Shown: positions 8,015-60,944 of the stretch, in pieces | Position numbering within the stretch: position 1 is the stretch's first letter | Layout of the letters: each line of letters starts with the position of its first letter | Assembly: GCA_023129115.1 (NCBI GenBank) | Contig: JAGMCR010000002.1 | Location: forward strand, 32,001-96,000 | Reading direction: 5' to 3' | Origin: Candidatus Iainarchaeum sp. | Lineage (GTDB): Archaea > B1Sed10-29 > WALL01 | DNA length: 64,000 nucleotides | Notes under the pieces: generated by a model | What the model was told of the DNA's origin: nothing | What the model saw: only the letters and a program-made list of their open reading frames with translations | The model's database searches: none | Program-made: the position numbers and the translations under genes

Positions 8015-8022
8015 GTGTCATA

Positions 8023-44796: not shown

Positions 44797-44820
44797 TTAA
44801 AAAAAAATGGAGAGATTCGT

Positions 44821-45453
44821 TTGAAGAAAATTAGTGTATCTGAACTGACTTTTGCGCAAATACGCGCAGCCTCCAAAGAGTTCAGAAAGCGCGAGGAGAG
44901 GGATTCAATATACAAAATCACTACAAAGCTCGTGAACGAGGCATGGGCCAAGAAAGGCAAGGGATTCACTCTCGCCGATGCCATTAGCGTGCTACTACTC
45001 GTTTGGAACCAGGGGTTCTACCGCTACGGAAGACTCAACTTCACTAAGTTCGATAAAGCTATCAAGAAGAACAAGCCACTACTGGCAAAGTTTAGGAAGC
45101 GAAAAATCGCAAGCTTCACAGCAAAGGATGAAACAACAATCAAGAAGCTATTCAACGATTTACTTGAGGCCACGTCCATCAAAACGAGGAAACAGAAGAA
45201 AAAGATGGTCAGCCCAGTCAGCGTTGCCAAAGCACTCCACATGATGGCTCCCAGATTCTTCCCGTTATGGGACGGAGCCATCGCCGTTGGATGGGGCTGT
45301 CGATTCAACCGGGACAACGCTGCTGACAAGTACCTGAAGTTCATGAGGCAAAACAAGGAACTGATGGGAAAATACAGTGGCCGCGGGCTAACCTTAAAAA
45401 TGATTGATGAATGTAGTTACGCAATATACACCGCGGGATGGTATCCACGATAG
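44821..45453 (+). CDS. Hypothetical basic protein, possibly nucleic-acid modifying
   Basis: LLVWN...SVAKALHMMAPRFFPLWD motif; its 3' end is duplicated at 52323. Confidence 0.6.
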   Translation: MKKISVSELTFAQIRAASKEFRKREERDSIYKITTKLVNEAWAKKGKGFTLADAISVLLLVWNQGFYRYGRLNFTKFDKAIKKNKPLLAKFRKRKIASFTAKDETTIKKLFNDLLEATSIKTRKQKKKMVSPVSVAKALHMMAPRFFPLWDGAIAVGWGCRFNRDNAADKYLKFMRQNKELMGKYSGRGLTLKMIDECSYAIYTAGWYPR

Positions 45454-45611
45454 ACAGGTCATTTCCTAGGAACTTCCGCGGAAATGAGGTGTGTGAGGGG
45501 CAAAAACCCGTGTAGGCTCTACAGCCGTACGACTTGTTCCCTCCCGAGGCTCTGTATCTCTGGTGCCAGAGCGCAAGCTAAATCATTCTTTTTTTTGTGC
45601 ACTTGCCTTTG

Positions 45612-46208
45612 CTAAAGCGACTTCGCGAACTTGTCCGAGGTGGTCATCTTTGCGTACAGCGGCAGTATGTCCATCATCGCGTCGTAGTTGCTGTCGGTGA
45701 AGCCGCTGGTCGCGTCCTTCAGAAGGGTCACGTTGTATCCCTTGTTGGCCGCGCGCTTAACAGTCGTTGCGATGACGTGCTCGGTGCACTGCCCGCTGAT
45801 ATATACGTGGTCGACTCCGGCCGAACGCAGTACTAAATCGAGGTCGGTTCCCTCGAAGCCGTCAGAGCCGTAGTTGATGACGATTACATCGTCTTTCTTG
45901 GGCTCGAGCTCCTTGATGACCTTGGCATCCCAGCTGCCCACCAAAGCTTTGTTCGCGTCTTTGGCTCCCTGCATGAGGGGGTAGTACTGGTTCTTGGGCA
46001 TTTCAGGATAGCCTGGTCTCCACGCGATGTTGACGAAGACGGTCAGCATCTTCTTCCTTCGGGCTGCGGAAAGCGCCTTCTTCGCCTTGGGTATTGACTT
46101 GTTCTTCTTGATTTGGGGGTACAGCATCTTGCCCCAAACGCCTTTGGGGTGGGCCACACCGTTTTGCCAGTGTAGCATTAGCAAAGCAGATTTTTTGACA
46201 TTAACCAT
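45612..46208 (-). CDS. Isochorismatase-family (cysteine hydrolase fold) protein
   Basis: GFEGTDLDLVLRSAGV, ISGQCTE, GYNVTLLKDATS. Confidence 0.88.
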   Translation of the reverse strand: MVNVKKSALLMLHWQNGVAHPKGVWGKMLYPQIKKNKSIPKAKKALSAARRKKMLTVFVNIAWRPGYPEMPKNQYYPLMQGAKDANKALVGSWDAKVIKELEPKKDDVIVINYGSDGFEGTDLDLVLRSAGVDHVYISGQCTEHVIATTVKRAANKGYNVTLLKDATSGFTDSNYDAMMDILPLYAKMTTSDKFAKSL

Positions 46209-46259
46209 GATAATTCACCGAAAGCAAACAAGCTTCCGTGCAATAAAAACGTTTCGGTT

Positions 46260-46284
46260 GGGGTTCAATTCCCTCCCGAGGCTC
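46260..46284 (+). repeat. Longest tRNA-Thr 3' copy (25 bp, att-like), directly upstream of the integrase
   Basis: GGGGTTCAATTCCCTCCCGAGGCTC identical to 42921-42945. Confidence 0.95.
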
Positions 46285-46359
46285 CATTACTGCGTCAAGG
46301 AGCCCCTGCTCAATTCCGCACCAGTCTATAAATAGTCCTTTGAGCAGAGCCTCGGAGGC

Positions 46360-47529
46360 ATGAGGACTGACCCTTACAACACCGGCACGAAGCTAGTGAA
46401 TTGCCTTGAGCGGGTTAGGCAATCGCTTGACCTATGTAAAGCCAACAAGCGGCTGATTCTTGAGTTCCACGCCGAGGCCGTTGCCCGTGGCTTGTCGGAA
46501 AAGCGGTGCCTTAAGTACGTGAGTACTCTCCGCAACCTCGGAACCCAACTTGGAAAGCCCTTTAACAAGGCGGACAAGCACGACATCATTCGCTTGCTCT
46601 CTTGGCTTGAGTCAACCGCGTACAAGGAGTGGACGAAGCACGACTACAAAGTCATTCTGAAATCGTTTTACAAGTGGCTGAACGGTGGAGAAGAGTATCC
46701 AAAGGTTGTTTCGTGGGTAAAAACAGGGATGAAGAACGGCAACCACATGCTGCCCGAGGAATTGCTGACCGAGGAAGACGTGCGTGCTTTAGTTGAAGCG
46801 TGTACGAACCCGCGCGACAAAGCTTTTGTCCTCACGTTGTACGAGAGTGGCTGCCGAATAAGCGAGCTGCTGACGTTGCAGGTAAAGAGCGTGAGGTTTG
46901 ACGAGCACGGCTCAATCTTGCGAGTGACTGGGAAGACCGGTGACAGGCGCGTGAGGGTGATTTCCGCGGCTCCGGCAATCGCGTTGTGGCTCGACAACCA
47001 CCCCACAAGGAAAGGGCACTTGTTTTGCTCCTTGGATGGGACGGGCATCAACTACTCGACCGCTAACGTGCTGTTAAGGAGGCTTGCTAAGAAGGCAGGC
47101 ATTACGAAGCGTGTTAATCCGCACGGTTTCCGCCACGCCCGGGCCACGTCGCTCGCGAACAAGCTCACAGAAGCCCAAATGAAGGAGTTCTTTGGTTGGG
47201 CTCAAAGTAGCGAGATGGCGGCTGTGTACGTCCACTTGTTGGGGCGGGACGTGGACGATGCCCTGCTAAGCATTTACGGCGTGAAGCCACCCGAGGACGC
47301 TCGCAAGGAGCGTTTCGTGCCTAGGGCTTGTCCCAGGTGCAAGGAGACTAATTCTCCTGCTAGTAAATACTGTTGCAGGTGTGGCAGTGCGCTCGACCTC
47401 GCAACAGCGCTAGAGGCTGATGACAAGCACAAGGAAGCCGATGCATTGATGAACGAGCTCATCAAAGACGACAGGATAAAAGCGCTTCTATTGGAGCGGT
47501 TGGTTGCCATCCAAGCAGAGAATCATTAA
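46360..47529 (+). CDS. Tyrosine recombinase/integrase with C-terminal Zn ribbon (SNJ2-like archaeal family)
   Basis: ESGCRISE (R), GKTG (K), HGFRH (HxxR), FGW, VYVH (Y), CPRC...CCRC; catalytic set intact. Confidence 0.95.
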   Translation: MRTDPYNTGTKLVNCLERVRQSLDLCKANKRLILEFHAEAVARGLSEKRCLKYVSTLRNLGTQLGKPFNKADKHDIIRLLSWLESTAYKEWTKHDYKVILKSFYKWLNGGEEYPKVVSWVKTGMKNGNHMLPEELLTEEDVRALVEACTNPRDKAFVLTLYESGCRISELLTLQVKSVRFDEHGSILRVTGKTGDRRVRVISAAPAIALWLDNHPTRKGHLFCSLDGTGINYSTANVLLRRLAKKAGITKRVNPHGFRHARATSLANKLTEAQMKEFFGWAQSSEMAAVYVHLLGRDVDDALLSIYGVKPPEDARKERFVPRACPRCKETNSPASKYCCRCGSALDLATALEADDKHKEADALMNELIKDDRIKALLLERLVAIQAENH

Positions 47530-47996
47530 CCTTTTCGTTTGAGGTTGTTGTATATATTGAGTGGTTCAGCGCTCAAATTCTCGCGTTCCTGGCCTTGGTT
47601 CAACTGATTTTTTAGGAATTCAATAGCTGCCAAGTAGCTCATCGGGAGCGCATCAGAAGTGTTTTCTCCCCCTGTTCAGGAATCCACATTACGAAAAAAT
47701 TCGGATTTGAGAATGTTGTATTCTCTCTTGTATTAATGGGGCAGTTTTCGGTGCGGATTCTAAGGCGTTGCTAGTGATTGACCATTGTGTAATTAGGATT
47801 CTAATTATTCAGAAAGTAGGGGTTGTGTGAAGCTCGGGGGTGAATACTGACCCTGATGAGGGTTCTGCATTACGAAAAAATTGGGATTCGGAAGTTGGCC
47901 TCCTTTTAGTGATAGAAAATGGATTTGGCCTTAGTTCACGTTTAAACATAGGTTTTTATTTGAGGACTGCTTTTTTGGCTAAGGAGCGGATTGCTG

Positions 47997-48665
47997 ATGA
48001 CTGATACTTTAGTTGATGTTTTGCTGATGCCGAACATTATGGCACTATGGGTTCCAATAATCATAGCGGCCGCCTTAGTAATCCTAATGGGATTGGTTGT
48101 CCGCCACAAAAAAGTTTCTATATCTAAGTCTAAAAAATCGCCAGATAACAAAAAAGTTGCTTTCAGATCACTTGTGATTGTTGCAGTACTATCGTTGGTA
48201 TTTTTCTTTGTTGAACCCCAGATAATAAAAGGTCTCTCCACACCACTTTTAACAATCCCATTTAGTGTTGTCCCCGCTCTTCTACTCGGATTATTTTACA
48301 CTGGACTTCAATACACTCCCATAGAAATCAAATCAGACAAGAAGAAAGCGACGCTAACAGTTGATTTTATTACTATTAATCTATGCGCACTCTTCGCATT
48401 CTTGACATTGTTTAACTTCTCTCCTTATTTCCCCGGCGCGTTCACTAGCACGAGCAACATAGCAATCATTTTCATAATTGCGTTGGTACAGACTTTTTTG
48501 TTCTCGCTGATTGTGTTCGCTTCGGAAAAAGTAAAATTCATCAGACTAAAAAATTTCCTTGGGATTCCAAATTGGCTGATATGTGTTATACTCTTTATCC
48601 TGCCTTGGTTGTTTTTGATGTATGAAAAAGCTATCCCAGTGGTGGGTGGCCTCAGGACCCTATAA
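47997..48665 (+). CDS. Multi-pass membrane protein
   Basis: About six hydrophobic helices; AT-rich DNA. Confidence 0.7.
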   Translation: MTDTLVDVLLMPNIMALWVPIIIAAALVILMGLVVRHKKVSISKSKKSPDNKKVAFRSLVIVAVLSLVFFFVEPQIIKGLSTPLLTIPFSVVPALLLGLFYTGLQYTPIEIKSDKKKATLTVDFITINLCALFAFLTLFNFSPYFPGAFTSTSNIAIIFIIALVQTFLFSLIVFASEKVKFIRLKNFLGIPNWLICVILFILPWLFLMYEKAIPVVGGLRTL

Positions 48666-48756
48666 TCAAAAATGCCTAAATCGGCATTTGTTTAAACGTT
48701 TGGACGATATGTATTTATTCTGCAAGCGCTTTTTGTTTGAGTCGGGGTGTTCTTCA

Positions 48757-51570
48757 ATGAAGCGAATGTTAGATGCATCTAAGGGCTCAGTTATAGTGGT
48801 GGTTTTTATCCTACTCTTAATTGTTGGGGTTTATGCGTTTGCTCCGTGTCCTGTTTCTCCACCAGTAAACGAAGGTGACCCACTGCCAATACCTTGCTTT
48901 GAAGAAGGTATGTGCATGGGTGGTTGTTGCTGCTATGATGGTTATCTTCTTCTCGAAAGGAATACTACTGAAGAACAGCCCAGCGCGATTACAGGTATGA
49001 TGGTAGCAACCGCACCTTTAGAAGGCAATGCAATTGAGCCCCACAAAGTGGTTAGTTTGGTTGGTTTTGAAGGCTATGACAAGAATAGGGACAAGGTTGC
49101 GGATTCCATGCAGAACGGTGTTTACTTAGAGGGCGCTACAAAAGAACTATTCACTGTTGCTTTTGACCACAAACCAACAGAAGAAGACAAAAAACTGGTT
49201 AGAGATATGGGTGGGGAGGTTGTTTACGATTTCTCATTGATTTACGCTTTAACAGTTAGGATACAACCAACCAAAATAACTGAGTATGCAGCAGCCAATC
49301 CACATGTAGTTATCGTGAGTGACCCCCGTGTAACTAGATCACTGAAGATATACCGCACAGCAAAAGTAGTTCGTGTTCGACCTCTAGTTTGGGAAACCTA
49401 TGGCTACAATGGTAGCGGGGAAGTAGTCACAGTAATGGATAGTGGCGTAGATGACTCCCACGCAGATTTACAAGGCAAAATAAAAAACTGGATGGACTGC
49501 AATCCTGCAGGATGCACTACTATTGGTCAGACACTGCATGACAACGTGGGCCATGGAACGAGTATTGCGGGGATTATTGTGGGGTCTGGGACGCAGGTGG
49601 GTGGTTCTAGTGGAGTAGCCACAGTGAACATTATGATTCATAGCCGGTTTACGGGCGAAGGCGGAGAAGTATGGGGTGGCTATTTTTCAGTGGATACTGA
49701 TGATAACACCCATTCCATTGACGGAACCCTTAATTGGGAGGCGGCTGACGGGCAGGACAATTACACAATAAAAGTAACCAACTCTACAGGGCTACCAAAC
49801 GGTGTTATTGGGGACGAAACTTCCGATTCAGACCCCTTAACCTTAACCACCAACTCATTCACAGAAACCAGTGAAATCCAGTACAAGTTTTACGTTAGCG
49901 CAGAGAGTGGCAATGCACATAACAGCACTGATGAAGCCTATTTCGCGCAAATGAGTACACCTATTGAATCGGTGGGGGATAGTTATAACCTCATGAGGGG
50001 ACTGGCACCAGGTAGCGAGCTTGTTTCCGTGAAAGTTGTGCCAGATGATAATGACATAGCTCATTTATGGACTATGAATAATGCCTATGATTGGATTGGG
50101 TCTAATTCTGAATCAGATGGCGTTAAAGTGGTTTCCATTAGTTTGGGTGGGACAACCGCTGACCCTATTGAATCAAAAGTCATTAGTAACACGATAGACA
50201 AAGGGGTTCTGCCCGTTGCAGCAACAGGTAATGATAACGGTGTTATCGACTACCCTGCTAGGTATCCTGAAGTGCTTGCTGTGGGGGCGATTGACAGCGA
50301 TGGAGACGTGGCGGATTACAGTAATTACGGGAACTCAAGTGAAGGCTCTGAAAAATGGCCCGATGTTGTTGCTCCCGGTGGGTCAAGCTGGTTCACTTAT
50401 GAAAAATACCCTGTTTTAACACTCGACACAAACGACGCTGAGTGTGTGACGAACACAGGCCTAACTACATGCGAAAGTTTCTCTGAAGAATACACTAATG
50501 ACTCCATCTATGCGTACGGTACTTCCATGGCTGTCCCCCACGTATCCGCGATAGCTGCCTTGATTGCTGAGGCGAAGGGGAGTTGGACTTACAACTCTTC
50601 TACTGACCCGTTGTGGGTAAAAATGGTTATTTCGATGACGGCTTGGGAGACCAACGAAACCAACCGTGGTTCTAAAGACATCTATGAAGGCTATGGAGTA
50701 GTCGCTGCCGACGCGGCAATCGAAGCGGTTATCTTCAACCACACGCTTGGGGACATTGAGTCAGATACTTTTGGCTCGGGATTGACTGACAAGAAGGTGT
50801 GGGCCCGCGAAGTTTCGCCGGGAGACAAGGAAATTGATTTCACGCTGGTGGTGCCAAGCGGCGCGGACTACGACCTCTACCTTTACAACAATACTCCTGA
50901 CCAGTACGGCCAGCCACAGATACTGGACAATTCGACAACTGCTGCGACCGGCGGCACAGAAAGCATTACCTACAACTTTTCGGCGAGTCAGGAAGCGTAT
51001 TTGGTGGTGAAGTGGGTCAGCGGTAACGGAGCATTTACTTTGTCTAGTGTGGAAGACAAGGACAAAATGAGTTTGATTCAGGGTTGGAACCAGTTTTCGT
51101 TCCCGAAGCTTCCGGCGAACAAGACTGTGGCCAACGTGTTCTCTTCAATTAGTGGTAGTTATGACCGGATAGATGATTACATCGCTAACAACAAGTCGTG
51201 GCGGATTTACGACGTAGCTGCAATTGGCTATTCCATGACGTTAAGCAACATTGAGGGGGGCAGGTCTTATCGCATTCATATGAACCAGGCCGACACAATT
51301 GAGTTCAGCGGCACGGACGTGGCGCCAATCAATATCTCGCTTTATGAGGGCTGGAATTGGCTCGCTTGGCCAGGCGAGACGGAGGCAATCGCCAGTGCGT
51401 TGAGCTCAATCGACGGGAGCTACAACAGAATAGATGAACTCTACGCTGGGGAGTGGGAAATTTATGATAGCTCCATCCCCGATGAGTACGACCAATCCCT
51501 GGACTACATGAAAAGAGGCAGAGGGTACGTAATTCTCATGAACTCTAACGACACACTCGAGGTGAATTAG
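48757..51570 (+). CDS. Secreted S8 (subtilisin-like) serine protease with PPC-like and C-terminal repeat domains
   Basis: VMDSGVD, HGTSIAG, ATGN, GTSMAVPHV; N-terminal TM helix; two L..GWN repeats. Confidence 0.93.
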   Translation: MKRMLDASKGSVIVVVFILLLIVGVYAFAPCPVSPPVNEGDPLPIPCFEEGMCMGGCCCYDGYLLLERNTTEEQPSAITGMMVATAPLEGNAIEPHKVVSLVGFEGYDKNRDKVADSMQNGVYLEGATKELFTVAFDHKPTEEDKKLVRDMGGEVVYDFSLIYALTVRIQPTKITEYAAANPHVVIVSDPRVTRSLKIYRTAKVVRVRPLVWETYGYNGSGEVVTVMDSGVDDSHADLQGKIKNWMDCNPAGCTTIGQTLHDNVGHGTSIAGIIVGSGTQVGGSSGVATVNIMIHSRFTGEGGEVWGGYFSVDTDDNTHSIDGTLNWEAADGQDNYTIKVTNSTGLPNGVIGDETSDSDPLTLTTNSFTETSEIQYKFYVSAESGNAHNSTDEAYFAQMSTPIESVGDSYNLMRGLAPGSELVSVKVVPDDNDIAHLWTMNNAYDWIGSNSESDGVKVVSISLGGTTADPIESKVISNTIDKGVLPVAATGNDNGVIDYPARYPEVLAVGAIDSDGDVADYSNYGNSSEGSEKWPDVVAPGGSSWFTYEKYPVLTLDTNDAECVTNTGLTTCESFSEEYTNDSIYAYGTSMAVPHVSAIAALIAEAKGSWTYNSSTDPLWVKMVISMTAWETNETNRGSKDIYEGYGVVAADAAIEAVIFNHTLGDIESDTFGSGLTDKKVWAREVSPGDKEIDFTLVVPSGADYDLYLYNNTPDQYGQPQILDNSTTAATGGTESITYNFSASQEAYLVVKWVSGNGAFTLSSVEDKDKMSLIQGWNQFSFPKLPANKTVANVFSSISGSYDRIDDYIANNKSWRIYDVAAIGYSMTLSNIEGGRSYRIHMNQADTIEFSGTDVAPINISLYEGWNWLAWPGETEAIASALSSIDGSYNRIDELYAGEWEIYDSSIPDEYDQSLDYMKRGRGYVILMNSNDTLEVN

Positions 51571-51690
51571 AGGGGGATACTTGACCTGGTCAAGCTGTCC
51601 TCCCGGGGCTCTGACCCTACGGTAGTAGAGCCTGCACCAAACTATTTATAGAACTTTGAGCAGAAGCCCTTGCGATGGGCAGGATAAACC

Positions 51691-52260
51691 TCATTCAAAA
51701 TGGTGTTTATGCTTTTCGAGTTTTTTCATGCGTTTCTTGTTTAGGTGAATTGTTTCTTTGGTTGCGCGGCTTTGGCGCTCGACTTCGAACGCGGTTATTC
51801 CAAGGTCGTGGGCCTCACACGCTGTTTTGATTGCACTGGCTGCTTGGACTATGTCTTCTCTTCGTGTTGACGGGTTTTGTTTTTTGTCTTCATTAAGTAT
51901 ATCAATTGCGAGGTCAATTGTTTTGTTTGGCAGCCCTAACCTCTTGCCTTGTTTTTGGATGATTTCTTGGGGAGTTGGAGTAGCTATGCCCGTAGCCTTG
52001 CGGAAGTCCTCGATGTCTTCTAGGCTTAGATTAATGGAGTTATCGGCGGCTCTGAAGTTGTACCTGCCAATTTCCATCCCCTGGTTTTGGCCCGCAACCC
52101 AACTTATTAAGCTCGCTTTTTTCACTGGCTCCGCATTGTACGCAATAACCTCTTTTTTCTTCCTGAGCCTCTCGACTTCTTTTACGAGTGCATCTTCTGC
52201 CTCGCCGGGAAAAACACGCAGCCGCCTTACTTTTTCCAAGATTTGGTCCATTTTAGACAT
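51691..52260 (-). CDS. Protein with a single TFB/TFIIB-like cyclin repeat
   Basis: PQEII...RLGLP...AIDIL...AASAI..AC......T..EV......TKETI resembles the second TFB repeat; no Zn ribbon. Confidence 0.55.
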   Translation of the reverse strand: MSKMDQILEKVRRLRVFPGEAEDALVKEVERLRKKKEVIAYNAEPVKKASLISWVAGQNQGMEIGRYNFRAADNSINLSLEDIEDFRKATGIATPTPQEIIQKQGKRLGLPNKTIDLAIDILNEDKKQNPSTRREDIVQAASAIKTACEAHDLGITAFEVERQSRATKETIHLNKKRMKKLEKHKHHFE

Positions 52261-52322
52261 AACAACAAATGACTCAGTTCTAAAATAAAAACCTTTTTAT
52301 CCCTCTTAGAGTTATGTGCAAA

Positions 52323-52495
52323 GCCGTGGGCTAACCTTAAAAATGGTTGATGAGTGTAGTTACGCAGTATACACCGCGGGATGGTATCCATGATAGACAG
52401 GTCATTTCCTAGGAAGTTCCGCGGAAATGAGGTGTGTGAGGGGCAAAAAGCGGTGCAGGCTCTATAGCCGTACGAGCTGTTCCCTCCCGAGGCTC
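52323..52495 (+). repeat. 173-bp duplicate of 45380-45552 (ORF tail, right end and core)
   Basis: Ungapped alignment with scattered substitutions. Confidence 0.95.
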
Positions 52496-52649
52496 AGCGT
52501 CCTGGGGGGCGCAGCCCCCCACGAAGCCCATGACGTTGACACAAGTCAACGTCCAGTCCACGGGAAGAGTCCCCTCAGTAATACTGTACTAGCTGCTGCC
52601 GGGCGGCCTTGCGCCGCCCTCGTCTAACGTGCCGCCTGAGTTTCAGGCG
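52496..52649 (+). repeat. Structured non-coding element, full copy (ORF-less cassette)
   Basis: Hairpins GGGGGC-GCA-GCCCCC, GACGTTGAC-ACAA-GTCAACGTC, GGGCGGC-CTTGC-GCCGCCC and CGCCTGA-GTT-TCAGGCG, between two cores. Confidence 0.9.
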
Positions 52650-52661
52650 CTCCCGAGGCTC

Positions 52662-52831
52662 AGCGTCCTGGGGGGCGCAGCCCCCCACTACCCCGGGAAG
52701 CGCCCCCCCAGGTGAGTGGGTAAGAGCTCGCTTCCGCTCGCGGTTTTTGTCTCTGGGAATCGCAGATTCCCAAGCCTAACGTGCTGTACCGTGAATCCCA
52801 ACGGATTTGCGGTTGTCCTGAGTTTCAGGCG
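52662..52831 (+). repeat. Structured non-coding element, variant copy
   Basis: Same AGCGTCCTGGGGGGCGCAGCCCCCC start, CTAACGTGC motif and CCTGAGTTTCAGGCG end; different internal hairpins. Confidence 0.88.
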
Positions 52832-53101
52832 CTCCCGAGGCTCTGACCCTACGGTAGCAGAGCCCGCTTCACCCCAAGCATGAGGCCGGACTTGCGCATA
52901 AGCTTCCTAGGGGTTTGTGGGGTTTGGGCCAATAAATTTATCAGGTTGTGGCATTCCTCGCTGAAGTATTGTCCCGCTGTCACTAAAAAACCCGTCCATT
53001 CCCTACAATAACGCTTAAAATATTGCCGTGGGGCGCATTCAGTCACGTTTATAAACTATAACATGTTAGATATATCGGTACCGATATTAAAAGGTTTTGT
53101 T

Positions 53102-53599
53102 ATGAACTTGTTTGCTAGGGGCTTGCTGAAAATTTATGTCTTGTACATGGCCAAACAGGGTTCCATTTCAGGCAGTGATGTTGCCAAGAGCATAAGCGCT
53201 GCCACAGACGGGCGGTGGAAGCCGAGCTTTGGCTCGATTTACCCGCTGCTGGGGAGGTTTGAGGAAGATGGCCTGCTGTGCCAGGAGGCTAGGAAGGGAA
53301 AGCAGGTCTTTTACTCACTCACCAAGAAGGGTGTGAAAGAGTTCGAGAGGCAGAGGGAAAAATACATTGCCGAGTACGAGGACAACCTCGGGACGCTGTT
53401 CCCCCTGGTCTTCCAGCTGGCGCAGTTCGAGGCCGACAAAGAGCTGCAAGACGCCGTCACGAACCTGAACCAAGTGTTCGCGAAATACAAGAAATACTTG
53501 TTCAACCTGGAGCTAAACGAAAAAGTGGAGAAAAGAAAGCGCATAATCAAGGACTTGTCCGCCACCCTTTCGGACCACATGAGCAAGCTGGAGAAGTGA
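53102..53599 (+). CDS. PadR-family transcriptional regulator
   Basis: WKPSFGSIYPLL...KQVFYSLTKKG. Confidence 0.9.
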   Translation: MNLFARGLLKIYVLYMAKQGSISGSDVAKSISAATDGRWKPSFGSIYPLLGRFEEDGLLCQEARKGKQVFYSLTKKGVKEFERQREKYIAEYEDNLGTLFPLVFQLAQFEADKELQDAVTNLNQVFAKYKKYLFNLELNEKVEKRKRIIKDLSATLSDHMSKLEK

Positions 53600-53603
53600 T
53601 GTT

Positions 53604-54926
53604 ATGGAAAAATACGACGCAATTGTTGTGGGGTGTGGCATAAGCGGGCTGCTCGCGGGCCTTGCGCTTGCCAAGGAAGGAAAGAGTGTGCTAATGCTCG
53701 AGAAGGAAGACAAAGTTGGTGGCGCGTGCAGGTCTTACGACGTTGACGGCTTCGTGGTCGACACCGGGCCGCATGTGATTACTGGGCGGGGGAATGGGCC
53801 AACCCAATTGCTGATAGACAAGTATTTTGACGTGGTGCCGAAGTTCATTGAGAGCAGAAAATATTTCCTGCGGTTTGACGGCAAGTTATACGCTTTCCCT
53901 TGGACGATTCCGGCTTGGCTATCGTTCCCACCGTTCTCAGTCGAAGACAGGCTCATCATTGTCCAGGTGATGTTCAAGTTGTTGGCAGACTATGCCTCTG
54001 GCAAAGGCTTGGGGGATAAAGTGGTGTCTGATTACACGGCGGGCCATGAGCTCTCGGGAAGGGCGCTGCAGTTCATTGATTGCATGTGCCTGTTTTTGAC
54101 GGGCGTTTGCATGGAGGAAACGCCCGTGAGCCGAATCCTTTCCGGGGGAAGGAGCAAAAACAAGACAAAAGCGGAAAAAATAAAAGAGATTTTGGTTGAA
54201 AACGGGAAGACCCATTACTATCCGCGTGGGGGGATCCAAACTATTGTTAACTCTGTATTGCAGTCCCTCCCGAAGAACGCCGGGATTCACAAGAGCGAAG
54301 AAGCAACCAAAATCGTGGTCAGTGGCGGGCGTGTTTCTGGTGTCGCCACGGACAAAGGCGAGTACGCCACGAAGGTAGTGGTTTACGCTGGACCGAACAA
54401 GCTCCTTCCCGGCTTGGTGGAACTGCCCCAAGAGTACATCCAAAAATTCAGGGGCTTGAAGCAAGCGAGGACGCTGACGCTGTGGCTCGGGCTAAATAAA
54501 AAATACTTCGCAGAAGTTGGGACAGAGCTTTGGACCGAAACAAAAAAGCCTTGCTGGGCCGTCCCAACATCCAATTTTGATTCTGCACTCGCCCCGACGG
54601 GGAAGCACTTGGTGGGCTTCGGCTTCGTGCTCGCGGAAGATGAGCAGGTGACCGACGACAACATTGACGACTATGTCAAAGTAGTCGAGGAAGTGTTCCC
54701 GGGCATAAGGGAACACATCGAGATGACCCATTACCAAGTGCTGGTTGCCGAGCAGGCAGCCAACGCAAAAGACAATTTCTTCAGCGGGGTCAAGCTGCCG
54801 GTCGATGGGCTGTACGCGGTCGGCACTGACGTCGACAGGCGGAGCATGGGCGTGACGAGGGCCGCGTACTCCGTAGTCTCGTTGATTGAAGCCCTAAAAC
54901 AAGGCGGTTTTGTTACGAAGGTGTGA
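53604..54926 (+). CDS. Phytoene-dehydrogenase-family FAD oxidoreductase
   Basis: GCGISG, VGGAC, VDTGPH, YPRGGIQ, LAPTGKHL, GLYAVG. Confidence 0.88.
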   Translation: MEKYDAIVVGCGISGLLAGLALAKEGKSVLMLEKEDKVGGACRSYDVDGFVVDTGPHVITGRGNGPTQLLIDKYFDVVPKFIESRKYFLRFDGKLYAFPWTIPAWLSFPPFSVEDRLIIVQVMFKLLADYASGKGLGDKVVSDYTAGHELSGRALQFIDCMCLFLTGVCMEETPVSRILSGGRSKNKTKAEKIKEILVENGKTHYYPRGGIQTIVNSVLQSLPKNAGIHKSEEATKIVVSGGRVSGVATDKGEYATKVVVYAGPNKLLPGLVELPQEYIQKFRGLKQARTLTLWLGLNKKYFAEVGTELWTETKKPCWAVPTSNFDSALAPTGKHLVGFGFVLAEDEQVTDDNIDDYVKVVEEVFPGIREHIEMTHYQVLVAEQAANAKDNFFSGVKLPVDGLYAVGTDVDRRSMGVTRAAYSVVSLIEALKQGGFVTKV

Positions 54927-54930
54927 AAAA

Positions 54931-56028
54931 ATGAAGTACAAAAAAATAGTTTTCCCGCGGGACGGTGCCGCCCATGACAACGTTATTGAGTGGTGGTACT
55001 TTAACGGGCACCTGAAGGACGGGAATGGCAATGGGTATGCCTTCATGGACTGCCTGTTCAAGGCAAAGCCCAAAGAAGTGAAACTTCCTTTTTTGAAAAA
55101 GATTCCACTCAAAAACGCTTATTTCGCCCACTCCCTTTTGTCTGACATCAAGGACAACGTGTTTTATTCAAGCGTGCAGCCCCTGAGCATACTCTCGAGG
55201 GACAGCTTTTCAAAGCCCTTGTTTTTCGTGAATTACTCCCACCCCTCTTTGGGCGGCTACCTGAATTACGAAATCGAGGAGATTGACGGGTTCAAGTATA
55301 GAATCAAGTCCGAGTTCTTTGACTTGACCTTGAGCTCGACCAAGAAGCCGCTGCTTGAGGGCGGGCGCGGGTTCATTGACTTGAATTCAAAGCAAACGTT
55401 TTACTACTCGCTGACAAACCTCGAGACAGAGGGATACGTCACTGTCAACGGCAAGCGAATCAAGGTAAAAGGCAAGTCCTGGATGGACCACCAGTGGGCC
55501 GACGTCCCGTACTCGAAGGACAAGTGGAGCTGGTTTTCAATCCAATTGGACAACAACACGGAAATGGTTTGCTTTGAGTATGGCGACAAGAAAAAGAAGA
55601 CTTATCTCGCGAGCATTTCGTACGCGAACGGAAGGGTCGCCCACGCCAGTGACTTATCACTAACCCCATTAGGCCAGGTATGGGAGAGCAAGAGAACTGG
55701 CGCCAAGTATCCCCTTTCATGGAGGATTCAAGTCCCGTCAAAAAGAATTGACCTCGTGGTGAGCCCCTTAATGAAAGAACAGGAAATAATTTTTGGGCCA
55801 ATCAACTACTGGGAGGGGCCGTTAAAAGTAACGGGAAAAGTGAACAACAAAAAAGTGGCTGGAAAAGGATTTTCAGAGCTTGTCGGCTACCCGACAACAA
55901 AGTCTTTTGTTGAGTTTTATGAGCCAGAACTAAGGAAAATCGAGAAAATAGTTAAAAGAGACTTAAGCGAATGGGTGGGTCATACGATTAGTGGAAAGCC
56001 GGGGTTTGCCGCGGATCGCAGGAAGTGA
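54931..56028 (+). CDS. CrtC/AttH lipocalin-like hydratase family protein
   Basis: H...IEWWYFNGHL, YYSLT, WMDHQW, WSWFSIQL, YWEG. Confidence 0.85.
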   Translation: MKYKKIVFPRDGAAHDNVIEWWYFNGHLKDGNGNGYAFMDCLFKAKPKEVKLPFLKKIPLKNAYFAHSLLSDIKDNVFYSSVQPLSILSRDSFSKPLFFVNYSHPSLGGYLNYEIEEIDGFKYRIKSEFFDLTLSSTKKPLLEGGRGFIDLNSKQTFYYSLTNLETEGYVTVNGKRIKVKGKSWMDHQWADVPYSKDKWSWFSIQLDNNTEMVCFEYGDKKKKTYLASISYANGRVAHASDLSLTPLGQVWESKRTGAKYPLSWRIQVPSKRIDLVVSPLMKEQEIIFGPINYWEGPLKVTGKVNNKKVAGKGFSELVGYPTTKSFVEFYEPELRKIEKIVKRDLSEWVGHTISGKPGFAADRRK

Positions 56029-56034
56029 GGTTGT

Positions 56035-56868
56035 TTGGGCTTTGGTGGTTTCTTGCTTCACTTGCGGCCGCTGTCGTGGCCACTTGTCGCACTGCAAGTC
56101 TTGACGGGGTTCGTGCTCGCCGGCGGCAACACTGTCTCTCTTGAGGTCTTGTTAGGTTTCTTTGTCATCGTTGTCTGTATGAACGGGGGAACACTGGCGT
56201 TCAACTCTTACTTCGACAGGGACGGTGGAAATGTGGGGTGGCTGGACAACCCACCCAAAACAACTAAGCAAACATATTACTTGTCGCTCGCGCTGATGGT
56301 ATTTGGTGTGCTCGCCGCCTTGCTGGTGTCCCATGAATTTTTCTATTTGGCTTCCGCATCTTTCGTTGTTAGCGTTGCTTATTCACATCCTTGGTTCAGG
56401 CTCAAGTCGGTGCCACTGGCAGACGCCATTTGTAGTGGCGTGGGTTACGGGGTGCTCATGTTTCTTGGGGGTTGGGTACTCGCGTCACCAGTCTTGACTG
56501 CCAAGGCCGGGGTCGTGTGCGTGGGAATGTTCCTGGCGTTCATGGCTGGGGTTCCATTGACCCAAATATATCAAATGCGTGAAGACAAAAAGAGGGGTGA
56601 TAGGACCACTGCATTGGCCTTGGGACCGGACAAATCAAAGTGGATGTTTTACTTCTTTGGCACGCTTTCTGTAGCCGTGTTGTTGTTTGCTGTTATGGAG
56701 GGGTTCTTGGGGAAACTTGCGCTACTGGCGGGCGTGCCTTTATTCTGGCTGGCGTTACAAGTACGGAACATCAAATCATTCAAGCACAAGCAAAAAGTTT
56801 ATGAGGCATACGTCGTGGTTGTTGTTGTGGATGTGGTTATCATTCTTTCAGAACTCGTTCCAGTGTAA
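56035..56868 (+). CDS. UbiA-family prenyltransferase
   Basis: LRP, FNSYFDRD, YSHPWFRLK, EDKKRGDRT. Confidence 0.88.
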   Translation: MGFGGFLLHLRPLSWPLVALQVLTGFVLAGGNTVSLEVLLGFFVIVVCMNGGTLAFNSYFDRDGGNVGWLDNPPKTTKQTYYLSLALMVFGVLAALLVSHEFFYLASASFVVSVAYSHPWFRLKSVPLADAICSGVGYGVLMFLGGWVLASPVLTAKAGVVCVGMFLAFMAGVPLTQIYQMREDKKRGDRTTALALGPDKSKWMFYFFGTLSVAVLLFAVMEGFLGKLALLAGVPLFWLALQVRNIKSFKHKQKVYEAYVVVVVVDVVIILSELVPV

Positions 56869-57002
56869 CACACCCCCTTTCCGCGGAAGCTTCCCCGGAA
56901 ATGACTTGGGTGTGGCTGATTTTGGGCGCAGGCTCTAGAGCCATACGAGCTGTTCTCCCCCGAGCTCTTTTATACTTCTTTTGACTAAAATTGTTTACTC
57001 TT

Positions 57003-58058
57003 ATGCATACACAAGAGCTTGTCACACGGCTTGAGGATGCGGAGAAAGCCGTTTCTGGGTACGGGGGGCAAAGGCTGTTGCTAATCAGCCAGTACTACGG
57101 CGCCCAAATGGATTTCGTCGATAGGATAGAGGCGGGCGTTGAGAGGGGCAAGAGGCTGATGAGTGCGGACATTGTTGTCAGAAGAAAGCATGCCATGAGC
57201 CAGCAGAAGATTTTCAAGAGGATGGCGCAGTTTTTCAAGCAAGTCGATGGCTCATACAAAAAAGGGGACATCAAGGACAAGGAGGGCCGTGTGTTCGCCC
57301 GCGCCTATGACAAGGCGGTCCACGGCCATTTTGCCAAGGTACGGGAGATTCTTTCAGAGGTAGAGGGCATGGCCGTGGTATACACGGAATTTGTTGGGCT
57401 TGAGGAAGAAGCAAAAAGGCAAAAGAAAAAGTTGGGGAAAAGGAAGGCGTCCATCCATGCATTGCTCGAGGAAGCGGGCTCGGTAAAGCCGCTTGATGGC
57501 GATTACGTGAAAAAGCATGGGGAAGTGCTTCGGAGCCTGGAGAAAGCCAAGGGGCTTAGGGCGGAGTACATACAAAAAATTCGTGGCAAGAGTGTTATGG
57601 AGTACGTGGCAATGCTGAAAAACAAGGATTTGGTCAAGGTGGGCTTTCCAGGCGCGGACCCTGCTGACATCACCAAATTCTTGAATGCTTATCCAGAGCT
57701 CTCAAAGGCAACGCCGGAGAAACTGCTTGAATATCGTTCCTGGACAGACGGGAAGCTAAAGCACACAATCCCGGAGACCAAGAGGTTCAGGAGCATGATG
57801 CAGGAGTATGGCTCTTGGCTGGAACGCCTTGAGCACCTTGAGTCATTGGGGTTCATGGTTGTTAGGAACGTGGAGGACGCGAAGAGGCTCGCGCCATTAT
57901 TCAGGGGGACCGAGGCCGGTGGCGTGCTGTCAAGCCTTAGCGGGCTTGGGGATTACTGGATGGCGCCCCCCAAAGGCGCACCAGTCAGGGACACACCAAA
58001 GCTAAAAAAAGAGCTTTCCGAGATAGGCAGGGAACTGGCGCTTCTGGAAGGCGTTTAG
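57003..58058 (+). CDS. Hypothetical helical protein (single-gene cassette)
   Basis: ORF fills the interval between cores at 56954 and 58066. Confidence 0.7.
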   Translation: MHTQELVTRLEDAEKAVSGYGGQRLLLISQYYGAQMDFVDRIEAGVERGKRLMSADIVVRRKHAMSQQKIFKRMAQFFKQVDGSYKKGDIKDKEGRVFARAYDKAVHGHFAKVREILSEVEGMAVVYTEFVGLEEEAKRQKKKLGKRKASIHALLEEAGSVKPLDGDYVKKHGEVLRSLEKAKGLRAEYIQKIRGKSVMEYVAMLKNKDLVKVGFPGADPADITKFLNAYPELSKATPEKLLEYRSWTDGKLKHTIPETKRFRSMMQEYGSWLERLEHLESLGFMVVRNVEDAKRLAPLFRGTEAGGVLSSLSGLGDYWMAPPKGAPVRDTPKLKKELSEIGRELALLEGV

Positions 58059-58130
58059 GCCCAATCCCTCCCGGGGCTTTCCGGGGGAGGTGGGCAACGC
58101 AAAGCTTAAATATTAGAAATGCGTACTATA

Positions 58131-58237
58131 GGGCGCTGTAGGTTTGAGAGGTTGTGAACCGCAAGGCTTGCAACGAATTATGTCCCGAAAGTGGCATAAG
58201 GGCCGTGTAGAAAATAGCTCTTAAACCTGTAGCACTT
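58131..58237 (+). ncRNA. Putative structured small RNA (three-way junction)
   Basis: BRE/TATA-like CGCAAAGCTTAAATAT at 58098-58113; closing stem GCTGTAGGTTTGAGAG/CTCTTAAACCTGTAGC with G-U pairs; two hairpins capped by GCAA and GAAA; T-rich tract downstream. Confidence 0.65.
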
Positions 58238-58462
58238 CAGCGCTTTCTGTTGTTTCAACTGTGTATGGACCTTAGTTCTCACGCTTCATTTCCGCGGAAC
58301 TTCCTAGCCGCAGGATTTATAGCCGTACGAGCTGTTCCCTCCCGAGGCTCTCAGACCACGTCAAGGAGCCCCCGCTCAATTCCGCACCGGTTTACATGCC
58401 TGTTTATAAAGGTTTACGATATATCGTACACCTTTATATAATAGTTCAAACACCGATTAAGC

Positions 58463-59653
58463 ATGGAGCTAGGACTCTGGAAGGTTGTGGAGCAATGGAA
58501 TTACTGGAAGGAAAAGCCAGAAACCGGTATTCCCAGGGACGTGACCGCAGAGGCAATGGAGTTCTTTAAAGGCAGCGAAGCGCTTTATTTTTTTGGCCCG
58601 CGGCGAGCCGGGAAAACATTTGTTTGCATGCAGCTGCTGTCAAAGCTGTCAAAGAAGCACGGGAAGAAATCTTGCTTGTACGTGAACTTTGAGGAGCCTG
58701 CTCTTGCCGGGAACCTGCGCACGGAATTCATAGAAGAAATCGTTGTAGAATTCAAAAAAGTGCATGGGAAGTGGCCTCGCTTCGTTTTCCTTGACGAAGT
58801 CCAGAACGTTAAAGGCTGGGAGCGCTGGGTCCGCGGAGCAGTGGACAGGAAACGGTTCAAGGTTTTTGTCACTGGATCTTCTGCGAAACTCTTGAGTTCA
58901 GAGTTCTCCACTTCTCTTGGGGGGAGGGGGATAGGCTTTCTGGTATTGCCGTTTTCCTTTAGCGAGTTTAGGCGTGCAAAACCAAAAGCGGGGCTCAAGG
59001 AGTACCTTGAGATTGGGGGCTATCCAGCGGTTGTACTGGAAAAAAACGAGCGCAAGCGCAGGAGGATGCTGGAAGAGTATTTTGACACTGCCATCATGAG
59101 GGATATAGTGGCTAGGCACGACGTGAGAGACGTGCCAACATTAAGAACGCTTGCCGTTTACTTACTGACAAATTCTGGAAAGCGCTTCAGCTACAATAAG
59201 CTTCGGGCAATGACACATCTCTCTTTTGACGCGCTTAGGCAGTACCTGTCATATCTTGAGGACGCATTAGTGGTTTTCCAAGTACCGTATTTTTCGTACT
59301 CCATGAAAAAAGCGCTTGAAAAGCCCCGCAAGTACTATGCTTATGACCTTGGGCTGCAGGGAGCTGTATCAAAGTCGTTTAGTCCGGACTGGGGAAGAAA
59401 AGCCGAGAACGCGGTTGCAATAGAGCTGGTTCGGCGAAGAAAAGAAATTCAATACTACTCAAACAAGTTTGAAGTCGATTTCATAATAAAAGAAGGAACA
59501 AAGATAAAGCCGGTAAATGTCTGCTACTCAGAGAAACCACCGCAAAGGGAAACAAAAAGCCTTGAAGAGTTTTCCAAAAAACACAAGTCAGAACCCCCTC
59601 TGTTGCTTTGCGGGAAGGATAACATCTTGAAGTGGCTGAAAACAAACCAATGA
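58463..59653 (+). CDS. AAA+ ATPase (AAA_14 + DUF4143 type)
   Basis: GPRRAGKT, FLDEVQ, VTGSS, GGYP, KYYAYDLG, EVDF. Confidence 0.92.
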   Translation: MELGLWKVVEQWNYWKEKPETGIPRDVTAEAMEFFKGSEALYFFGPRRAGKTFVCMQLLSKLSKKHGKKSCLYVNFEEPALAGNLRTEFIEEIVVEFKKVHGKWPRFVFLDEVQNVKGWERWVRGAVDRKRFKVFVTGSSAKLLSSEFSTSLGGRGIGFLVLPFSFSEFRRAKPKAGLKEYLEIGGYPAVVLEKNERKRRRMLEEYFDTAIMRDIVARHDVRDVPTLRTLAVYLLTNSGKRFSYNKLRAMTHLSFDALRQYLSYLEDALVVFQVPYFSYSMKKALEKPRKYYAYDLGLQGAVSKSFSPDWGRKAENAVAIELVRRRKEIQYYSNKFEVDFIIKEGTKIKPVNVCYSEKPPQRETKSLEEFSKKHKSEPPLLLCGKDNILKWLKTNQ

Positions 59654-59695
59654 AAAAATGCTCCTTGACGTGGCCAAGCCGCCCTCCCGGGGCTC

Positions 59696-59722
59696 AGCGT
59701 CCTGGGGGGCGCAGCCCCCCCA
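59696..59722 (+). repeat. 5' fragment of the structured element serving as the left end of the DNase cassette
   Basis: AGCGTCCTGGGGGGCGCAGCCCCCC directly after the core. Confidence 0.85.
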
Positions 59723-59776
59723 CTGGGCGGTTCGGCACGCGCGGGGTTTATTAACCTTCTTTTCGTTGGCTGTGCA

Positions 59777-60607
59777 ATGAAGCGCGTTGCCCTGCCCATA
59801 CTGCTGCTCTTGCTTGTTGGCTGCATTGGCACGCCTTCTCCACCAGCCGGCCAGTGCTCTGGCCCCACTGTCTCAATCGCGACGTTCAACATACAAGTCT
59901 TCGGGCAAGCAAAAATGGGCGACCCGGAAGCCGTGGACTCGCTCGTGGGCATAGCCACACGGTTTGACATCGTCGCCATCCAAGAGGTCCGCGACGCAAG
60001 CGAGACCACTGTCCCGCGCTTCGTCAGCGAAATCAACTCACGCAACCACTCCTACGCGTACGTAATAAGCGAGCGGCTCGGCTCCACGTCGTCAAAAGAG
60101 CAGTACGCCTTTGTCTACAACACAGAAACAATCTCGTTCGAAAACTTTTCGTACCTCGTCAACGACACCGTGTTCGAGCGCCCGCCGTTCGTCGCAAAGT
60201 TCAGGGCAGGAGAGTTTGATTTTTTCCTCGTGAACACGCACGTGAAGCCGGAGAAGGGGCGCACCGCCAGCGAGATAAAAGCGCTTGCCGGCGCGGTCAC
60301 TGAAGACGAGGACTACATAATCCTGGGCGACTTCAATGCCGACTGCTCTTACCTCGACGAAAAAACGCTTTCCTCCCTCTTGCCCGGGCTGGACATAATC
60401 GTTTCCAACGAAGACGATACCACAGTGGGCGCGTCCGACTGCACGTACGACAGGATAGCCATCACGCCACGAACGCGTGAGGACTACTCAAGCTACGGAG
60501 TGTACTTGTTCGACAAAGAGCTTGGGCTGGACAGCACGCAAGCAAAAAGCGTGTCAGACCATTACCCCGTGTACGCAGAGTTTTACATTTCGTGCGACAC
60601 CGATTGA
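59777..60607 (+). CDS. DNase I-like (EEP) extracellular lipoprotein nuclease
   Basis: LVGC lipobox-like motif, TFNIQVFG, IQEVRD, KEQY, LGDFNADC, YDRI, SDHYPV. Confidence 0.92.
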   Translation: MKRVALPILLLLLVGCIGTPSPPAGQCSGPTVSIATFNIQVFGQAKMGDPEAVDSLVGIATRFDIVAIQEVRDASETTVPRFVSEINSRNHSYAYVISERLGSTSSKEQYAFVYNTETISFENFSYLVNDTVFERPPFVAKFRAGEFDFFLVNTHVKPEKGRTASEIKALAGAVTEDEDYIILGDFNADCSYLDEKTLSSLLPGLDIIVSNEDDTTVGASDCTYDRIAITPRTREDYSSYGVYLFDKELGLDSTQAKSVSDHYPVYAEFYISCDTD

Positions 60608-60646
60608 TGGGCTCCAAGAAGTGAATCCCTCCCAAGGCTCCATCTC

Positions 60647-60837: not shown

Positions 60838-60944
60838 AATCCCTCCCGAGGCTCTCATTCTATGGTAGTAGAGCCTGCGCCAAAGTGTCTTGCAAGTTGA
60901 TTAGCAGCAAAAGCCTGACACAATTTTCCGAGCTTGGAACACTT

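Follow-up and report, generated by a model that had tools for sequence, protein, structure and literature searches.

A modular hairpin repeat found chiefly behind tRNA genes in one genus of DPANN archaea and its likeness to the tRNA-linked repeats of Escherichia coli

According to the passages of one article that deal with them, the tRNA-linked repeats (TLRs) of Escherichia coli, first described in 1978, comprise 22 copies, distributed over ten loci that follow tRNA or rRNA genes (PMC8144298). The same passages give the 3' end of the repeat as 18-19 bp identical to the 3' terminus of the upstream tRNA or rRNA gene and describe most of the repeats as having no known function (PMC8144298). In bacteria, restriction-modification genes have been inserted with a long and variable target duplication, as set out in the relevant part of a study of such insertions (Furuta, Abe and Kobayashi 2010, PMC2853133). 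The element described here was found in an archaeon, in a window that comprises 64,000 nucleotides of a Candidatus Iainarchaeum genome. An earlier account made from the letters of the window (the sequence-only reading) had described it as a structured family without open reading frames that moves as its own cassette.

The source genome of the window (G000) consists of 1.25 Mb in 19 contigs. Two congeners, G001 and G002, also carry the element, and the completeness of the three carrier genomes is 84-89%. A tRNA-Thr(CGT) gene was identified in the window by ARAGORN and Rfam at 42872-42945 on the + strand. Its 12-nt 3' terminus (42934-42945), CTCCCGAGGCTC, which runs from the end of the T-stem through the 3' acceptor strand and the discriminator to one further base, recurs as a core in 8 exact copies and 4 copies with one mismatch, on the + strand in every case; with up to two mismatches there were 16 matches against 6.8 expected. 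Since the first core copy is the 3' end of tRNA-Thr, the region that starts at 42934 and reaches at least 62972 is a one-way array in which copies of the tRNA end delimit the segments. The array contains single-gene segments (isochorismatase, subtilase, AAA_14/DUF4143, Exo_endo_phos and peptidase S9) and a block of PadR and carotenoid genes, with ORF-less hairpin cassettes interspersed among the gene segments. A tyrosine integrase of the tRNA-Thr island is encoded at 46360-47529 on the + strand (Pfam Phage_integrase, 5.2e-24) and is given as context, not as evidence for the mover of the hairpin element. The order of the array is that of the given assembly, with no independent confirmation from the public contigs of the source run, which break at repeats. 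In this comparison, of contigs from three DNA runs with 43500-63400, the joints had short sides (20-56 nt) or came from other copies.

Three full copies of the element, designated E1 (52496-52649), E2 (52662-52831) and E3 (60647-60837), could be read in the array on the + strand at the places originally reported. An exact copy of the core lies to the left of E1 (52484-52495), a second copy separates E1 from E2 (52650-52661), and a third, to the right of E2 (52832-52843), has a copy of the native trailer of tRNA-Thr (tgaccctacggtag.agagcc) after it. E3 is preceded by GAATCC, a core copy with one mismatch and the linker CATCTC (60629-60646) and followed by AATCC and a core copy (60838-60854), so that the two sides form a direct repeat of 17-18 nt. 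The flanking cores are on the + strand. The sequence-only reading had correctly placed each copy between two cores, but it missed that the cores are tRNA 3' ends and that the linkage to tRNA genes extends throughout the genome. The copies have this position because they target the same copied tRNA-Thr 3' end by which the island's gene cassettes are delimited.

A profile constructed from E1, E2 and E3 gave 37 matches with E below 0.01 in the source genome, and these matches indicated that the element is a composite of two separable units, A and B. The order of the parts had been given correctly; the division into separable units corrects the earlier description. Unit A consists of AGCGTCC, a G-rich hairpin (H1), CTACCCT, a preferred place for nested insertion, and GGGAAGC with a C-run, and it continues either as CAGGTGAGTGGGTAAGAGCTCGC..GCTCGCGG and a T-run or as TCAGTAA... 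Unit B consists of TTTGYCTCT, a hairpin (H3), AAGCCTAACGTGCC or CTACCKCGCC, and a terminal hairpin (H4), its layout in short being hairpin, CTAACGTGCC, terminal hairpin. The palindrome GACGTTGAC-N4-5-GTCAACGTC forms a third small module, which is nested in E1 and, in a congener, even inside the H3 loop. There are no terminal inverted repeats; AGCGTCC with the G-rich hairpin at one end and the terminal hairpin CAGCTGAGTTTCAGCTG at the other are not inverted copies.

E1 is an A+B composite in which AGCGTCC (52496-52502) is followed by H1 (52504-52520), the nested palindrome GACGTTGAC..GTCAACGTC (52532-52553), GGGAAG (52562-52567) and CCCTCAGTAA (about 52572-52581). Its unit B, which the unit B model matched at 52592-52651 with 82.3 bits, has H3 at 52601-52619, CTAACGTGCC at 52624-52633 and H4 at 52633-52649. 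E2 is only 57% identical to E1. It comprises AGCGTCC (52662-52668), H1 (52670-52686), a T5 run (about 52744-52748), H3 (52755-52771) and CTAACGTGC (52776-52784), and CCCTCAGTAA..CTGTA is indeed absent, as had been noticed. A nested hairpin at 52788-52813, with two G.T pairs on the + strand, splits CTAACGTGC from the terminal hairpin, of which 52816-52831 remains; the earlier description is corrected in this respect. In E3 (model match 68.8 bits), AGCGTCC (60647-60653) and H1 (60657-60675) are followed by an inserted segment (about 60680-60742), GGGAAG (60748-60753), CCCTCAGTAA (60761-60770), H3 (60790-60808), CTAACGTGCC (60812-60821) and H4 (60821-60837).

The fragments that had been listed were also recovered. 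A core copy with one mismatch and a 5' fragment of unit A occupy 59684-59721 on the + strand, with AGCGTCC and H1 at 59696-59721, and precede an Exo_endo_phos gene. At 8240-8373 (+) a unit A with a nested insert lies head to head against the 5' end of tRNA-Ser(TGA) (8154-8239, - strand) and fills the spacer up to tRNA-Val. Behind the same tRNA-Ser(TGA), a segment at 8002-8081 (-) contains a unit B at 8024-8081, which with 84.1 bits was the best match to the model, and then, at 8002-8015, a 14-nt repeat of the tRNA's 3' terminus.

A covariance model of unit B was built from 14 copies, and 70 matches from the three genomes of the genus, 67 of them distinct and some from loci fetched by motif scan, were aligned. 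In this alignment 97.1% of the cells were in standard pairs, compared with 75.5% in shuffles, and the covariation score was 0.487, compared with 0.142 in shuffles and 0.03-0.08 with slid partners; none of 500 shuffles was as high in either measure. Changes on both sides occurred at 11 of the 14 pairs. These figures are generous because the alignment was fitted to the structure of the model and the copies are related. A model-free, gapless hairpin finder applied to 46 distinct copies gave 650 Watson-Crick pairs, 12 G.T pairs, no A.C pair and 3 others, drawn from over 20 distinct H3 stems and no fewer than 8 H4 stems. The 12 G.T pairs are not independent events, since 11 of them represent a single H4 position in the CTACC subfamily, where the wobble persists beside a G-C to C-G flip. 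The proposal that pairing is kept through compensatory changes was thus upheld, also in the larger alignment.

On either strand, whole elements were more stable when folded than dinucleotide shuffles (z -2.3 to -6.5), and when the strands were compared by folding energy each was the more stable in 5 of 10 copies. When 41 unit B copies were aligned simply with MAFFT, RNAalifold predicted no pairs because stems of unequal length were misaligned, and the model-based alignment was used instead. The pairing of the hairpins is under maintenance; the strand that folds may be RNA or single-stranded DNA. The absence of a known RNA family, on which the sequence-only reading depended, was confirmed. The scan of the window at Rfam gathering thresholds returned only 4 tRNAs, and scans with E-values up to 1 of 52400-52900 and 60580-60900 returned only chance-level matches (19 and 17 bits, compared with gathering scores of 88 and 98).

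In the source genome, 21 of the 44 listed unit B copies were within 350 nt of a tRNA gene, compared with 6.9% of random non-ORF 60-mers, and 21 of the 38 tRNA genes had a unit B nearby. The architecture of these 21 tRNA-proximal copies is that of the E. coli repeats: 18 were downstream of the tRNA and 3 upstream, 20 were on the same strand and 1 on the opposite strand, with repeats of the tRNA 3' end at the tRNAs listed below. Relative to protein genes, 12 copies had the same and 14 the opposite orientation, which was regarded as noise given the crude gene calls. Behind a tRNA the layout is sometimes 1-6 nt, then unit A and/or unit B, 0-10 nt, and the tRNA's own 3' end, directly repeated. At tRNA sites the repeat is 10-19 nt long, begins in or just after the T-loop and spans about the T-loop to the discriminator or beyond, sometimes into the T-rich trailer.

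The flanking repeats were examined with a test that asks for an exact repeat whose start is no more than 15 nt past H4 and which is found again in the 400 nt upstream. Repeats of at least 10 nt were found at 21 of the 44 listed copies, compared with 85 of 3993 random sites (2.1%), and repeats of at least 14 nt at 15 of the 44, compared with 4 of 3993. The other 23 copies had no exact repeat of 10 nt or more, which counts against the view of the element as a mobile repeat. Units whose end repeats the tRNA 3' end were found at tRNA-Thr, Ser(TGA), Ser(CGA), Ser(GCT), Arg(TCT), Glu(CTC), Glu(TTC), Leu(TAA), Val(TAC), Gly(GCC) and others; in all, 14 or more different tRNAs, as well as protein-gene tails, are the source of the repeats. 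When non-tRNA sites are included they range from 10 to more than 45 nt, those at protein-gene ends on contigs C19, C1 and C9 being 16, 19, 26, 34 and >45 nt. Moreover, a unit A inserted within the 5' portion of tRNA-Gly(CCC) is bracketed by 16 nt repeated from the 5' end of that tRNA. The direct repeat is a general property of the element and is not peculiar to tRNA-Thr.

As far as the relevant passages on the E. coli TLRs allow comparison, both systems consist of short non-coding units directly behind stable-RNA genes on the same strand, single or in tandem, with a function that is largely unknown, and in both the unit terminates with a repeat of the upstream gene's 3' end, which measures 18-19 bp in E. 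coli and 10-19 nt at the archaeal tRNAs. The archaeal element differs in that it belongs to another domain of life, the likeness being one of architecture with no sequence relation expected, and in that its hairpin modules are also present at protein-gene ends and upstream of tRNAs. Its repeat length is more variable, and it is known from DNA sequence.

Several observations indicate that the element moves as its own cassette, as had been proposed. A+B composites of the E1-E3 type have moved as wholes, as shown by similar copies elsewhere: E2 has a counterpart (93.6% identical) behind tRNA-Glu(CTC) on contig C4 of the source genome (7051-7222), and E3 has one (89.6%) on contig C14 (11344-11531), both with different flanks. 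Occupancy varies among congeners at tRNA-Thr(CGT), Leu(TAA), Val(TAC) and Val(CAC), the first two being bare in G002. The G002 tRNA-Thr(CGT) locus is syntenic with the source genome upstream (78% identity), and its downstream side had no counterpart in the source genome by blastn or tblastx. A 'Val' cassette is found at Val(TAC) in the source genome and at Val(CAC) in G002, two tRNAs with a common 3' end. Similarly, Gly(GCC) and Gly(CCC) have cassette types in common.

An empty site was identified at a protein-gene end. The locus on contig C9 of the source genome consists of a gene, tail 1, unit B, tail 2, unit B and tail 3, where the tails are 48-nt gene tails, while the G002 orthologue has a single tail and no element. 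The two BLAST pieces of this comparison overlap by 50 nt, the mark of an empty site. At the equivalent site of G001 there is a different hairpin module, and the repeat starts at the identical place. Tails 1 and 2 have the ending seen in G001 and differ from each other at six positions, all synonymous; tail 3, which is joined to the downstream flank, has a G002-like ending. The three tails are mosaics with almost only synonymous differences. This is not what the decay of a fresh duplicate gives; it is the outcome expected if a 'tail plus unit B' from a foreign lineage recombined into the resident tail.

The element is found only in one genus of DPANN archaea (Nanobdellati) among the genomes searched. 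The unit B model had 45 matches in the source genome, 34 in G002 and 6 in G001, and none in the 10 other genomes of the order that were searched (3 of 13 positive). By BLAST the element was present in 3 of 41 relatives, all of one genus. An exact 26-nt motif (22 stretches) was found in only 2 other records of a species-representative collection, one a single-cell genome of an archaeon and the other a Nanobdellati MAG. There was no match to the motif in viral contigs. It did occur on 7 short metagenome contigs, 5 of which had a tRNA gene on the strand of the element. Among the papers retrieved by literature searches, no title or abstract opening described such elements in DPANN archaea.

A mobilising enzyme was sought in the three carrier genomes, each 84-89% complete, and none was found, which counts against the mobile-repeat interpretation. 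There were no matches to Y1_Tnp (PF01797), Rep_trans, Relaxase or RVT_1 (PF00078) in the three genomes, nor to Cas1 (PF01867) in the source genome, and the only match to DDE_Tnp_1 in the three genomes was a weak one below the cut-off in the source genome. The suggestion of a rolling-circle or relaxase origin found no support in genomes of this completeness. The source genome has four TnpB genes, but contig C3, which carries TnpB, and the surroundings of the TnpB gene on contig C13 had neither unit B nor nhmmer matches. The window integrase is the only tyrosine recombinase found in the source genome. It was discarded as the mover because its distribution does not follow that of the element: G002, with its 34 unit B matches, yielded no similar integrase, and one that is 85% identical is present in another genome (G005), which has no element. 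A casposon-like insertion was also set aside, since Cas1 was not found in the source genome and terminal inverted repeats are lacking, as was a SINE-like retroposon, since no reverse transcriptase was found in the three carrier genomes.

Small non-autonomous repeats of prokaryotes include MITEs, REP/BIME and the modular pneumococcal BOX. The archaeal element has in common with them dozens of short, ORF-less, intergenic hairpin copies in a narrow lineage, a modular build as in BOX, and nested insertions. Unlike them, it has long and variable gene-end duplications, a strong tRNA bias and a fixed orientation. It is not a strict MITE, since it has neither terminal inverted repeats nor a short fixed target duplication, the repeats being 10 to >45 nt long, and no related transposase element was found in the three carrier genomes. 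Nor is it a REP system, given that no RAYT or Y1 gene was found. Derivation from REP/BIME-RAYT or IS200/IS605 was rejected because no Y1 HUH transposase was found in the three carrier genomes and because 21 of 44 copies have repeats of at least 10 nt, whereas such elements insert with no target duplication.

Elements that integrate into tRNA genes have integrase-less derivatives, the cis-mobilisable elements. The likeness lies in the direct repeats of the 3' part of the tRNA that bound the insert, in the tandem arrays behind one tRNA and in the presence of an integrase-bearing island at the same site in the window. However, the hairpin element is far too small for genes, uses many tRNA ends as well as protein-gene ends, and has a distribution that departs from that of the integrase. 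A CIME-like element mobilised by an integrase was rejected because there is no co-occurrence with a cognate integrase and no single att core. Integron cassettes have attC sites with a GTTRRRY core and an IntI-type integrase. The tRNA-Thr array resembles an integron in being one-way and bounded by a short core, and ORF-less cassettes exist there too; the element resembles attC as a recombination-adjacent site in which structure is kept while sequence varies. The core here is, in contrast, a tRNA end and not GTTRRRY, no IntI-type integrase was seen, and the hairpins are inside the cassette, to one side of the core, without reaching across the junction.

As far as the pertinent part of the study of restriction-modification insertions goes, these have in common with the element long, variable direct repeats of target sequence, often over the 3' end of a gene, together with the lack of a linked transposase, empty sites in relatives and a mechanism that is unknown in both cases (PMC2853133). 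They are, however, whole gene units in bacteria with repeats of >30 bp, whereas the archaeal inserts are hairpin units of 60-190 nt with repeats from about 10 nt.

The units multiply as DNA in the genome and sit at gene ends, chiefly just behind tRNAs in the orientation of the tRNA. The orientation bias of 20:1 is unlike orientation-blind DNA insertion and fits either an RNA role or a directional mechanism. Judging by this co-orientation and by the copies between a promoter and a tRNA, many copies would have to be transcribed, and this makes a processed RNA with a role of its own a live rival. Such a functional RNA, which would form a leader or 3' external spacer of the tRNA transcript and be excised by tRNA processing enzymes, would have spread only secondarily; the idea is regarded as unlikely, although it deserves serious consideration. 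It would account for the strong covariation of unit B, for the 20 co-oriented and 18 downstream copies among the 21 near tRNAs, and for the 12 G.T against 0 A.C pairs on the tRNA-sense strand, the same strand on which the hairpin at 52788-52813 has its two G.T pairs. In G002 and on two metagenome contigs, unit B is present between a TATA-like box and tRNA-Ser, where it would presumably be transcribed, and the relevant passages on E. coli describe the TLRs rrA, rrB and rrF as processed sRNAs (PMC8144298). However, 11 of the 12 G.T pairs reflect one inherited position, whole-element folding favoured neither strand (5 of 10 each), and the positions are poorly conserved among congeners. Copies are also found in tandem and behind protein genes, other modules are freely nested inside the element, the family is restricted to one genus, and no promoter of its own is evident, with a T5 run in the middle of some copies.

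The other alternatives attribute the cassettes to known enzymes or to error, and the two enzyme-based ones fit the data less well than a mobile repeat or a processed RNA. It is improbable that the element represents attP arm regions of tRNA-targeting elements, left as deletion remnants or moved in trans like streptococcal cis-mobilisable elements. The cores are tRNA 3' ends that begin near the T-loop, and a T-loop-proximal sublocation is typical of tRNA-targeting integrases; in addition, the array contains an integrase gene, and its gene cassettes are bounded by the same core. Yet a single tyrosine recombinase in the source genome, and the distribution in G002 and G005 described above, would have to be reconciled with one unit that has the ends of protein genes and of no fewer than 14 tRNAs at its borders, in repeats of 10 to >45 nt, and the gene-bearing cassettes of the array have other ends. 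A remnant of an HUH single-stranded DNA transposon (IS200/IS605, REP-RAYT, rolling-circle or relaxase), with CTAACGTGCC between the hairpins as the nick site, is very improbable. The invariant single-stranded motif between two covarying hairpins, the asymmetric ends without inverted repeats and the four TnpB genes in the genome are what such an origin would leave, but Y1_Tnp, Rep_trans and Relaxase were not found in the three carrier genomes, the TnpB genes on C3 and C13 have no element match on the contig or nearby, respectively, and the element has long flanking direct repeats, which to our knowledge HUH, rolling-circle and relaxase enzymes do not make. Chance similarity or an assembly artefact of the metagenome bin can be practically dismissed: the public contigs of the source run do break at the repeats, but the family occurs in three genomes as well as in metagenome contigs of two additional sample series, and chance is excluded by the core count, the covariation and the flanking-repeat statistics.

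The evidence as a whole leans, if modestly, towards a selfish, non-autonomous hairpin repeat whose insertion makes a long target duplication, with later shuffling through recombination between the repeats, and the element is best read as an archaeal counterpart of the E. coli tRNA-linked repeats. Insertion of the mobile repeat would create the long, variable target duplication, and three landings would have occurred in the window at copies of the tRNA-Thr end. The 'element plus one repeat' could then be looped out or put back by recombination between repeats, a task that the island integrase might perform within the tRNA-Thr array. The hairpins would be retained because a folded single strand is needed, either as DNA during copying or as RNA, many copies probably being transcribed by read-through in the form of tRNA leaders or trailers. 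A selfish nature is the most likely, and the element's effect on the host would be at most that of a spacer, a terminator or a 3'-end hairpin.

A wider proposal is offered as a conjecture that is itself rather doubtful. An insertion route that employs no known transposase would place hairpin DNA at gene-end boundaries, of tRNAs and other genes, with duplications of 10-50 nt, and the 'hairpin unit plus one repeat' would then be a miniature cassette that could be re-inserted wherever the same gene end exists, as in paralogous tRNAs, att cores or the same gene in related lineages. An RNA-mediated version may start from a read-through pre-tRNA cut in the T-loop, though no reverse transcriptase was found. 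If true, this route would also explain the tRNA-linked repeats of E. coli.

The mechanism of insertion is testable, since there are many covarying copies, sites that are polymorphic among three congeners and a clear empty site. For annotation, 'cores' and tRNA-end fragments should be checked for hairpin units before they are called tRNA pseudogenes or att sites. The element provides an archaeal counterpart to the E. coli tRNA-linked repeats, and it illustrates how a compact archaeal genome of about 1.25 Mb takes up repeats without gene breakage, the insert carrying or creating a spare gene end.

At least 11 segments formed a one-way array headed by the tRNA-Thr(CGT) gene; the array occupied window positions 42934-62972 and continued to about 99.2 kb on contig C12 of the genome that contains the window (G000). 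The 12-nt 3' end of the tRNA, the core, was the boundary of every segment behind the gene. Several segments contained a single gene (isochorismatase, AAA_14/DUF4143, Exo_endo_phos and peptidase S9), and one housed a tyrosine integrase. The layout was similar to that of integrons, with the difference that the core in the array is the end of a tRNA. The integrase gene had an inverted copy of the core (window 46347-46358, minus strand) between its TATA-like box and its start codon, and an inverted core was similarly placed beside the gene for an 85% identical integrase in G005, a relative without the element (locus L034).

Further repeats were also found at the cores. The native tRNA-Thr trailer, tgaccctacggtagtagagcctgcacc, which forms a hairpin with GGCTC of the core, was found again behind four cores (copies at window 42946-42975, 51612-51640, 52844-52870 and 60855-60880), so that for some segments the repeat is about 40 nt rather than 12 nt. 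A repeat of ~70 nt (..ttccgcggaa..aggctcta.agccgtacga..tgttcc) preceded three cores (window about 45470-45540, 52410-52483 and 58270-58338) and probably forms the right-hand terminus of a different family of inserted segments. The ends of the AAA_14/DUF4143 segment (window 58339-59695) carried a 12-nt inverted repeat free of mismatches, ACGTCAAGGAGC on the left, 7 nt past the left core, and GCTCCTTGACGT on the right, 12 nt short of the right core; similar left ends followed the cores at 46273 and G000:C12:99204.

Outside the window, the 5' part of a tRNA-Gly(CCC) gene was interrupted by unit A (G000:C12:27289-27401), which left a degenerate 16-nt copy of the tRNA 5' end upstream of the unit. 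Sequences resembling tRNA 3' halves, with a T-arm and acceptor strand, preceded element copies at G000:C12:114560-114640 and C14:11290-11343. ARAGORN called no tRNA at these two sites, where the options are a tRNA gene with an intron or an orphan fragment. Several unit B copies of G000 contained a further family of short repeat units (..GGCGAATCCCACAGGATTGCCGGGGCACCT..), inserted between CTAACGTGCC and the terminal hairpin (C4:25358-25560, C5:9002-9150, C17:10036-10165 and C2:19740-19900). At G000:C9:44250-44700, a 48-nt gene tail occurred three times, in alternation with two unit B copies; the tails were mosaics that differed almost exclusively at synonymous sites. Among the element-bearing congeners, G002 had an empty site for this locus (C5:57700-57900), and G001 had a different hairpin module at the matching position (C15:14050-14340). 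The G000 assembly also had four TnpB-like (Cas12f1-like_TNB) genes, at three sites on C3 and at C13:134192-134389; no Y1 TnpA was found in that assembly.

One array segment (window 53063-58058) encoded PadR, an amine-oxidase-type desaturase, a CrtC-like lipocalin hydratase, a UbiA prenyltransferase and a DUF7118 protein. The set looks like one for carotenoid (bacterioruberin-type) tailoring, which is unexpected for a small DPANN genome of cold seep origin.
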